Shown piece after piece: positions 27,393 through 28,600 of a stretch of 64,000 nt of DNA. The notes beneath the pieces are model-generated. The model had not been told where the DNA came from. It saw only the letters and a list, made by a program, of their open reading frames with translations, and did no database searches. The position numbers and the translations under genes were made by a program. Positions within the stretch are counted from its first letter, which is position 1. Each line of letters begins with the position of its first letter. Origin of the DNA: Escherichia phage Pu-Krd-SF3. The stretch lies in the sequence record PQ249397, one strand, 5' to 3'.

Positions 27393-27866
27393 ATGTTATT
27401 GACTGGCAAATTATATAAAGAAGAAAAACAGAAATTTTATGATGCACAAAACGGTAAATGCTTAATTTGCCAACGAGAACTAAATCCTGATGTTCAAGCT
27501 AATCACCTTGACCATGACCATGAATTAAATGGACCAAAAGCAGGAAAGGTACGTGGATTGCTTTGTAATCTCTGTAATGCAGCAGAAGGTCAAATGAAAC
27601 ACAAATTTAATCGTTCTGGCTTAAAGGGACAAGGTGTTGATTATCTTGAATGGTTAGAAAATTTACTTACTTATTTAAAATCCGATTACACCCAAAATAA
27701 TATTCACCCTAACTTCGTTGGAGATAAATCAAAGGAATTTTCTCGTTTAGGAAAAGAGGAAATGATGGCTGAGATGCTTCAAAGAGGATTTGAATATAAT
27801 GAATCTGACACCAAAACACAGTTAATAGCTTCATTTAAGAAGCAGCTTAGAAAGAGTTTAAAATGA
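27393..27866 (+). CDS. 49: endonuclease VII (Holliday-junction resolvase, gene 49)
   Basis: MLLTGKLYKEEKQKFYDAQNGKCLICQRELNPDVQANHLDHDHELNGPKAGKVRGLLCNLCN… matches T4 EndoVII including the zinc-binding cysteines and HNH-like core. Confidence 0.95.
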   Translation: MLLTGKLYKEEKQKFYDAQNGKCLICQRELNPDVQANHLDHDHELNGPKAGKVRGLLCNLCNAAEGQMKHKFNRSGLKGQGVDYLEWLENLLTYLKSDYTQNNIHPNFVGDKSKEFSRLGKEEMMAEMLQRGFEYNESDTKTQLIASFKKQLRKSLK

Positions 27867-28600
27867 ATGTAGTATATAAACTATCATTTATTAGTAGAAT
27901 TAATGCTAAAACCCCGCCATATTATTATATTGGAAGTAAAACCAATTGCACTTTTGACGGAACGAATATTATTGATAAAAATGGTAAATTTTATTATTCG
28001 TCTTCGTCATCTTCCGAATTTCAAAAAGCCCTGTTGAAAGAAACGCCGAAAGTTGAAATATTATATTTTCAATTAGTCGGAGATGAACAAATAACTAGCA
28101 TTGAAGCTGAATTTCAAAAGAATATAGAAAAAGATATATGGAATAAAGAGTATTTCAATTTAGCATATGCTGACGGTCAATTTACAACGTATGGTATTTC
28201 TCCTTCTAAAGAAACTAGAGAAAAGCAATCAATAACCATGATTAAAAGAAATCGTAATAAAGGTAAAAATCATGGATTTTATGGAAAGCATCATACTAAT
28301 TTAGCCAGAAAGAAAATATCAGAAGCTTCTAAAAAATACTGGAAAGAAAATCCACATCGTGGATTTTCGCATACAAAGGAAGCTAAAATTAAAATTGGAA
28401 TTTCATCTTCTATCAGGCATAAAGGAAGTGGAAATCCGATGTATGGTGTAAAACCTTGGAAAACTCCGAGAGCAATTAAATCTGGTACTTGTATATTATG
28501 GTTAAAATACGCAGAAATTTTATATGATTATTTAAGTCCAGATTTTAAAAGTAAATCATCTATTTTTGCGGATTTAAACTTACCGAAATTTAGAATTTGA
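27863..28600 (+). CDS. free-standing GIY-YIG homing endonuclease (Seg-like) with NUMOD-type DNA-binding repeats
   Basis: N-terminal VYKLSFI…PYYYIGSKT GIY-YIG motif; basic repeats NRNKGKNHGFYGKHHT…KEAKIKIG in the C-terminal half; lies between 49 and an intronless nrdD. Confidence 0.8.
   Translation: MNVVYKLSFISRINAKTPPYYYIGSKTNCTFDGTNIIDKNGKFYYSSSSSSEFQKALLKETPKVEILYFQLVGDEQITSIEAEFQKNIEKDIWNKEYFNLAYADGQFTTYGISPSKETREKQSITMIKRNRNKGKNHGFYGKHHTNLARKKISEASKKYWKENPHRGFSHTKEAKIKIGISSSIRHKGSGNPMYGVKPWKTPRAIKSGTCILWLKYAEILYDYLSPDFKSKSSIFADLNLPKFRI

Follow-up and report, generated by a model that had tools for sequence, protein, structure and literature searches.

The junction of gene 49 and nrdD in the T4-like phages raises a question about the spread of selfish genes: when a GIY-YIG endonuclease gene stands alone beside an nrdD gene that has no intron, is it a substitute for the endonuclease-bearing nrdD intron of T4, or an element with its own means of transmission? 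The locus considered here is from Escherichia phage Pu-Krd-SF3 (PQ249397), a T4-like phage; the window, by which we mean the whole stretch of DNA analyzed, comprises 64,000 nucleotides (nt). A first-pass annotation had proposed that the free-standing gene, at 27863-28600, is present instead of the T4 intron and may represent an alternative strategy for invading the same neighborhood. We find that this open reading frame (ORF) is a frameshifted copy of a longer gene and that the longer gene is accompanied by a diverged tract at the beginning of nrdD. The first-pass annotation had missed both the truncation and the linked tract, and these are the most useful corrections to it. The features on which the argument depends are as follows.

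27393..27866, + strand: gene 49 (endonuclease VII), the left neighbor; Pfam Endonuclease_7 and Endonuc-dimeris
27863..27866, + strand: ATGA, in which the gene 49 stop overlaps the endonuclease start
27863..28600, + strand: the ORF under study, 245 amino acids, a frameshift-truncated copy of a predicted 273-amino-acid Seg-type homing endonuclease gene
28676..30493, + strand: nrdD (anaerobic ribonucleotide reductase large subunit), intron-free, 605 codons
28676..28897, + strand: nrdD codons 1-74 (the first 222 nt), the diverged tract that accompanies the endonuclease gene

The explanation that we favor, and consider probable, is that the complete gene would be a free-standing Seg-type homing endonuclease gene that spreads by intronless homing, with an immune nrdD tract co-converted alongside it.

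An insertion at the junction of gene 49 and nrdD

On the + strand of the window the genes are arranged in the order nrdC, pin, gene 49, the endonuclease ORF, nrdD and nrdG. That a GIY-YIG/NUMOD endonuclease gene lies upstream of nrdD and overlaps the stop of gene 49, as first proposed, is borne out by the ATGA at 27863-27866. The region 27300-28900 is 100% identical to the corresponding DNA of Escherichia phage Pu-Krd-SF4 (PQ759884), and parts of it are matched by 683 T4-like phage records. The endonuclease gene itself is found in 48 of about 700 related phage records, and comparison of phages with and without it defines an exact empty site, the ATGA overlap. In all of the endonuclease-free loci that have nrdD directly after gene 49 (about 25), the two genes are contiguous, and in nearly all of these, as well as in T4, the stop codon of gene 49 shares nucleotides with the start codon of nrdD. 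In the carriers the insertion starts right after ATGA, and the endonuclease ATG occupies the position that the nrdD ATG holds elsewhere.

The carriers belong to two genera, Tequatrovirus and Mosigvirus (JK42, ST0 and FL18). Between hosts of the two genera the endonuclease gene is 98% identical, whereas their gene 49 sequences are 68-85% identical. The corresponding values of synonymous divergence (dS) are 0.05-0.09 for the endonuclease gene and 0.23-0.42 for the body of nrdD, with gene 49 saturated. When the window is compared with the Mosigvirus carriers, 13-14 of 819 nt differ in the endonuclease gene (dS 0.05-0.07) and 88-91 of 360 nt differ in codons 1-120 of gene 49, where synonymous sites are saturated, while the body of nrdD has a dS of 0.29-0.39. 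The dS of the endonuclease gene is 4-6 times below that of the adjacent nrdD, and a value so far below that of its flanks points to a recent horizontal spread of the gene. The ratio of nonsynonymous to synonymous divergence (dN/dS) is 0.09-0.16 over all pairs of carriers, and the protein is therefore under purifying selection. Judged by divergence, this is the pattern of what appears to be a recently spreading, selectively maintained element. The part of the first-pass proposal that invoked intronless homing thus stands, given the sporadic distribution, the exact insertion, the linked diverged nrdD tract and the low dS over two genera, which together mark horizontal spread.

These data bear on the suggestion that the gene is not, or never was, that of a mobile nuclease, and that it encodes a domesticated DNA-binding or regulatory protein or is a neutral passenger, inherited vertically and repeatedly lost. 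Vertical descent cannot produce near identity of one gene in two genera, with a dS so far below that of nrdD, next to a gene 49 that has diverged so widely. We regard this suggestion as very improbable and take up its remaining points together with the properties of the protein.

A diverged nrdD tract accompanies the endonuclease gene

Sliding-window comparisons of carriers with non-carriers gave 97-100% identity in gene 49 and 92-100% in nrdD past about 28897. Between these regions the first 60 nt of nrdD could not be aligned, and the segment 28773-28892 was only 60-65% identical. Relative to T4, codons 1-20 of nrdD have 45% nucleotide differences and 14 amino acid changes, codons 21-32 have 14% and none, and codons 33-72 have 38% and 14. 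The tract therefore differs from the endonuclease-free (T4-type) allele by 28 amino acid changes in total, and from codon 74 on NrdD is essentially the same as in T4, with 1 change in codons 73-140. At an identity of at least 95% the tract was present in 49 records, namely the 48 carriers and OLB35, a deletion derivative that is described below; in all other records it was at most 90% identical, in partial alignments only. On the left side of the insertion, the final 74 nt of gene 49 show no fixed difference that would separate carriers from non-carriers, and any immunity to cleavage would therefore reside at the junction or in nrdD. The final ~110 nt of gene 49 are 93-100% conserved by sliding identity, Mosigvirus-type loci included, and would serve as a left homology arm. 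The nrdD tract is the likely region of both target-site immunity and co-conversion.

These features can be accommodated in a simple scheme. The ancestral event would have been an insertion exactly where the start of nrdD overlapped the stop of gene 49. The endonuclease gene, for which no separate promoter is evident, would probably be cotranscribed with its neighbors gene 49 and nrdD, and the middle-promoter-like site at 27775-27800 may serve for this purpose; coupling to the stop of gene 49 would give a low rate of translation. In a mixed infection the 273-amino-acid enzyme would cut a naive genome within the first ~220 base pairs of nrdD or across the 49/nrdD junction, and repair of the double-strand break on the carrier template would copy both the endonuclease gene and the diverged codons 1-74 of nrdD, which presumably cannot be cleaved. 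Intronless homing of this kind is well established for the Seg enzymes, which cleave the adjacent gene and bring about co-conversion and marker exclusion; in the case of SegF, SegG and others the start overlaps the upstream gene, there is no promoter of their own, and cleavage in the neighboring gene is accompanied by co-conversion (PMC2988022). It does not, accordingly, amount to a new invasion strategy.

The site of recognition and cleavage might instead be the 49/nrdD junction itself, destroyed by the insertion as for enzymes that introns encode, with codons 1-74 having hitch-hiked as DNA of the donor lineage when the locus was first invaded. The insertion is placed exactly at the invariant ATGA junction, and the most diverged part of the tract is the junction-adjacent first 60 nt of nrdD. 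It may also be said that the 28 amino acid changes resemble a foreign allele more than a target that has been silently recoded. However, free-standing T4 endonucleases characteristically cut hundreds of base pairs or more from their insertions (PMC2988022), and the tract is intact in all 48 carriers and in both genera despite a dS of 0.2-0.4 and mosaicism in the body of nrdD. This retention argues for selection that keeps the tract, and we consider a junction target rather unlikely.

We have also entertained the idea, which we hold to be improbable, that the mobile unit may be a composite cassette in which the endonuclease gene is joined by an N-terminal module (codons 1-74) that replaces the resident one of NrdD. 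If this were true, the properties or the expression of the anaerobic reductase may change upon acquisition, the latter because the element takes over the translational coupling site of nrdD. The target may then also coincide in part with a site to which an unrelated intein endonuclease has converged; the tract ends 13 nt before the sequence coding for LPFTNC/C, the site of an intein-like insertion in Morganella phage MP1.

In that phage (vB_MmoM_MP1; L036 5468-8245) NrdD is a single ORF of 925 amino acids, with an insertion of ~277 residues after LPFTNC/C (about codon 79) that ends in VVTGN/C. The insertion has a weak LAGLIDADG_3 match and probably represents an intein that contains a homing endonuclease.

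The predicted protein

Three segments of the protein could be delimited.

27863..28177, + strand: N-terminal GIY-YIG nuclease domain, amino acids 1-105, SegG-like, with invariant Y5, Y22, G24, E81 and N99
28250..28321, + strand: NUMOD3 repeat 1, amino acids 130-153 (Pfam PF07460)
28346..28417, + strand: NUMOD3-like repeat 2, about amino acids 162-185 (approximate, from the two Pfam stretches and alignment columns)

T4 SegG, a characterized GIY-YIG endonuclease, is 40% identical to amino acids 1-126 (tblastn, BLASTP), and PHROGs labels residues 1-125 'homing endonuclease' (5e-29). When SegG-like proteins are aligned with canonical GIY-YIG proteins, residues Y5, Y22, G24, E81 and N99 do not vary, nor do they within the SegG-like set alone; in a further alignment (A2) N99 alone is invariant and the other four are each at least 90% conserved. 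With hhalign, the SegG-like N-termini matched canonical members of the superfamily, I-TevII included, with a probability of 80% (E 1.3e-5), the YIG, Glu and Asn being aligned. The ORF can be assigned the GIY-YIG alpha/beta fold. The second half contains NUMOD3 in two stretches, above the Pfam threshold (30.3 bits against a cut-off of 20.4; 4e-07), and at this segment a profile of the endonuclease family matches the DNA-binding domain of I-TevI (1I3J) with E 1.7e-5. A sub-threshold match to TIGR01453, 'group I intron endonuclease', scored 22.7 bits, the cut-off being 56. Taken together, the product is predicted to be a Seg-type enzyme that belongs to the SegG clade and has a DNA-binding half of its own.

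The resemblance to SegG, which is encoded between genes 59 and 32 of T4 and cuts gene 32, is considerable. Over the ~126 residues of the catalytic domain both proteins share the unusual motif MNVVYK...PPYYYIGSK.NC with a 16-residue GIY-YIG spacing, both have the tail motif GW.P..D.E(F/Y) at the C-terminus, and each gene lies directly upstream of its presumed target gene in the same orientation. They differ in locus (59/32 as opposed to 49/nrdD), in length (210 as opposed to 273 amino acids) and, by alignment, in the middle and C-terminal regions, where the present protein has two NUMOD3 repeats and SegG has none. Because of these different middle and C-terminal regions the specificity presumably differs from that of SegG. 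The gene is thus not an orthologue of segG, similarity being confined to amino acids 1-126; it is set apart from SegH by position only, since it lies upstream of nrdD and not at the mobC position; and it is neither intron-encoded nor detectably similar to I-TevII (BLASTP, E 1.1). From these comparisons the product would be none of the three. In GenBank the gene carries generic labels and once, in phage JK42, the label 'SegG', which appears to be a misnomer based on similarity. I-TevI is encoded in an intron of td and has only ~21% sequence identity. In its organization the gene, which lies in no intron or intein, also recalls segF of T4, which is known for localized marker exclusion: both are free-standing GIY-YIG genes that lack an evident promoter of their own and have a start that overlaps the upstream ORF, a cut is presumed in the adjacent gene, and the carrier allele of that gene is diverged (PMC2988022). 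For SegF, activity and marker exclusion have been demonstrated by experiment, whereas here the corresponding evidence is a comparative footprint.

A cluster of proteins at 90% identity has 82 members, and among the 15 members listed 14 have 273 amino acids and 1 is a truncated copy. None of the literature searched describes an endonuclease gene at the 49/nrdD junction. The gene would be an unnamed and uncharacterized addition to the well-known Seg or 'intronless homing' class, with cleavage as a predicted activity.

Several findings weigh against homing by an active nuclease with an immune tract. No match to Pfam GIY-YIG (PF01541) was obtained at E <= 0.1 with either the window ORF or the 273-amino-acid form, a Foldseek search of the PDB with the predicted structure gave no significant match, and the C-terminal half of the structure model is of low confidence (predicted local distance difference test, pLDDT, 40-55). 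The canonical catalytic Arg that follows YIG is R27 in I-TevI; in the alignment no Arg is evident at the equivalent position in the SegG-like clade, where R12, K26 and N28 are invariant in its place. The literature searched held neither enzymology nor phage crosses for this protein. Finally, neither blastn across phages nor a back-translated search of IMG/VR revealed a donor lineage of the tract: the carriers matched at 99% and everything else at no more than 68% amino acid or 77% nucleotide identity, and any other sampled N-terminus of a T4-like NrdD is at most 68% identical to the tract. The tract could be passenger DNA of an unsampled donor rather than a determinant of immunity.

The lack of an evident Arg and of a Pfam match are also what a protein that is not a mobile nuclease might display, and the truncation in the window, in a phage that was nonetheless isolated as viable, could be cited to the same effect. 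However, the two catalytic Tyr residues, the Glu and the Asn do not vary, and T4 SegG, whose motif departs from the canonical one in the same way, is listed among the active endonucleases (Table 1, PMC2988022).

Related genes occur at other loci. A metagenomic T4-like contig (L049 5001-5822) encodes P0003, a 273-amino-acid paralogue with a nuclease domain 57% identical, directly after the gp5 gene and ahead of a 5.1-like gene, and the same enzyme clade has thus colonized another locus. P0003 is the closest non-orthologous full-length relative; as a clue to origin it proved uninformative, since it lies at a different locus. In Pseudomonas phage PspYZU05 (L002 2525-5159) a homologous endonuclease gene (34% identity) is situated between two coding sequences, both annotated 'RecA-like recombination protein', an arrangement that suggests that uvsX has been split by insertion.

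Frameshift in the window copy

The copy in the window is interrupted near its end.

28596..28598, + strand: run of three T (two in relatives), a +1 insertion that creates TGA at 28598-28600
28599..28685, + strand: displaced, out-of-frame C-terminal tail (DNFIKRFKMGWNPYLDEEFQKDKLELCL and its stop), overlapping the nrdD start by 10 nt

The DNA was aligned with that of Pu-Krd-SF1 (L047), G8 (L003), an IMG/VR contig (L006), JK42 (L051) and ST0 (L052). At 28592-28600 the window reads AGAATTTGA and all five relatives read AGAATTGA; in the relatives the ORF has 273 amino acids and ends at the equivalent of 28685, with a 10-nt overlap with the nrdD ATG. Apart from the extra T, the window gene is the same as that of Pu-Krd-SF1. 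Among the 48 carrier records only the source of the window has the one-base-longer span, the other 47 being one base shorter, and in the 42 carrier records beyond the five relatives that were translated the match length is consistent with an intact gene. A programmed frameshift was rejected, since the extra T occurs in one record only.

The +1 frameshift costs the protein its last 28 residues. The lost tail, DNFIKRFKMGWNPYLDEEFQKDKLELCL, contains the GW.P..D.E(F/Y) motif and is probably functional, because this motif is also found at the C-termini of T4 SegG and of P0009. The window copy would represent either the start of the decay phase of a homing cycle or an error of sequencing or assembly. 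For this genome the proper annotation is "homing endonuclease, frameshifted".

Decay and loss derivatives

Two further phages carry remnants of the element. Escherichia phage OLB35 (MH992122, an 'UNVERIFIED' record; L053 1980-2010) is without the endonuclease gene. Its nrdD starts with seven endonuclease codons, the initial MNVVYKL, and continues in the same frame with carrier-type nrdD from about codon 10; the diverged tract is kept. We interpret OLB35 as a near-complete excision scar, a deletion that retains an nrdD allele presumed to be immune. In Escherichia phage FL18 (PP400780; L054 2501-3992) the endonuclease is truncated at about amino acid 204, where it runs into what is left of nrdD, the last ~20 codons. 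The deletion amounts to about 1.9 kb, nearly all of nrdD is gone, and the phage is left without this gene.

FL18 has in addition a second, canonical GIY-YIG/NUMOD3 endonuclease gene (276 amino acids) at the mobC/segH position before nrdG. Its product shows similarity to the endonuclease studied here at the level of NUMOD3 only (E 0.025).

Relation to the nrdD intron and to other endonuclease genes

As the first-pass annotation had stated, T4 nrdD does carry a group I intron with a GIY-YIG endonuclease: at the T4 locus nrdD starts in overlap with the stop of gene 49, its intron holds I-TevII, and mobC separates it from nrdG. It was also right that nrdD in the window is continuous. The ORF at 28676-30493 is uninterrupted, and no Rfam family, group I introns included, scored in 25000-33000. 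The site that the intron would occupy was located by blastn against T4 and by the tblastn limits of the exons.

29211..29214, + strand: empty site, at about nrdD nt 537, for the group I intron (I-TevII) of T4 nrdD

Where the proposal failed is in having the free-standing gene replace the I-TevII intron as a vehicle to the same nrdD target. Both elements do lie in or beside nrdD, and the window is without the intron. Yet an insertion of ~1.03 kb at the intron site is present in 7 of the 48 carrier records, from 5 phages (fPS-2 and G8 with two records each, F26, Lv5cm and Manna), and in G8 this is a group I intron (Rfam Intron_gpI, 105 bits) that encodes I-TevII. Mutual exclusion was therefore rejected. 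I-TevII is present in just 25 records of the whole collection, and an intron-free nrdD is therefore the norm irrespective of the endonuclease gene. I-TevII belongs to the same superfamily and has the same host gene, but it is encoded in an intron, has no detectable pairwise similarity to the present protein, and has its site at a distance of about 540 nt from the nrdD start; between the end of the diverged tract and the intron site (about 29212) lie 315 nt. We conclude that the endonuclease gene and the intron are independent, and we find it hardly credible that one takes the place of the other.

Free-standing endonuclease genes are also known on the other side of nrdD, where T4 has mobC (HNH) and other phages have segH (GIY-YIG) in its place (Table 1, PMC2988022). 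These flank nrdD as the present gene does but lie at the opposite side, the nrdD/nrdG junction. In the window that junction is empty: the two genes overlap, with no mobC or segH-type gene in between. MobC/SegH and the gene described here show that nrdD is a hot spot for free-standing endonuclease genes (see also the title of Sandegren et al. 2005).

Expression signals

27775..27800, + strand: T4 middle-promoter-like site (MotA box TGCTTCA, N13, TATAAT) inside the 3' end of gene 49, found by pattern match

This site precedes the endonuclease ATG by 63 nt and falls within the conserved 3' end of gene 49. The pattern occurs 22 times in the window, compared with 8.2 +/- 2.9 expected, and by its match to the consensus the site is a candidate promoter for the endonuclease gene and nrdD. 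No T4 late promoter (TATAAATA) was found in 27000-29000, and sigma-70-like promoters in 27200-29000 were not above chance (13 matches versus 9.1 +/- 2.7). The sole terminator-like hairpin in the scan of 27200-29000 is upstream of gene 49. The ATGA overlap suggests that translation of the endonuclease may be coupled to that of gene 49, as has been described for several free-standing endonucleases of T4 (PMC2988022). At the other end of the ORF, the premature stop at 28600 in the window uncouples the end of endonuclease translation from the start of nrdD, 75 nt downstream.

Other observations in the region

30490..30960, + strand: nrdG, overlapping the nrdD stop

Within nrdG, T4 (L001) is just 59-63% identical to the window at 30593-30792, a patch that is 89-93% identical in all other loci compared, carriers and endonuclease-free loci alike. 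The diverged T4 patch adjoins T4 mobC and is analogous to the nrdD tract beside the endonuclease studied here. The body of nrdD (28676-30493) is 90-98% identical between the window and the Mosigvirus-type loci L015, L016, L019 and L024, compared with 68-85% for gene 49 and about 40-60% for the pin region; nrdD appears to have been homogenized across genera, possibly through repeated gene conversion driven by endonucleases. Upstream of pin, 26493-26793 is a variable stretch that resembles a hot spot of indels or replacements. Identity falls to about 55% at 26493 in all loci compared, and 26593-26792 is missing from G8 (L003), L006 and L005.

Significance

The gene adds a fourth kind of selfish element at nrdD, beside the I-TevII intron, the MobC/SegH-type genes on its 3' side and the intein-like insertion of the Morganella phage. 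The nrdD gene of the T-even phages is thus a compact natural system for studying the coexistence and competition of several homing elements. The related genomes capture a homing cycle, with intact copies, a fresh frameshift, the internal deletion of FL18 and the excision scar of OLB35. The enzyme itself would be a predicted nuclease of the SegG clade with a new specificity.
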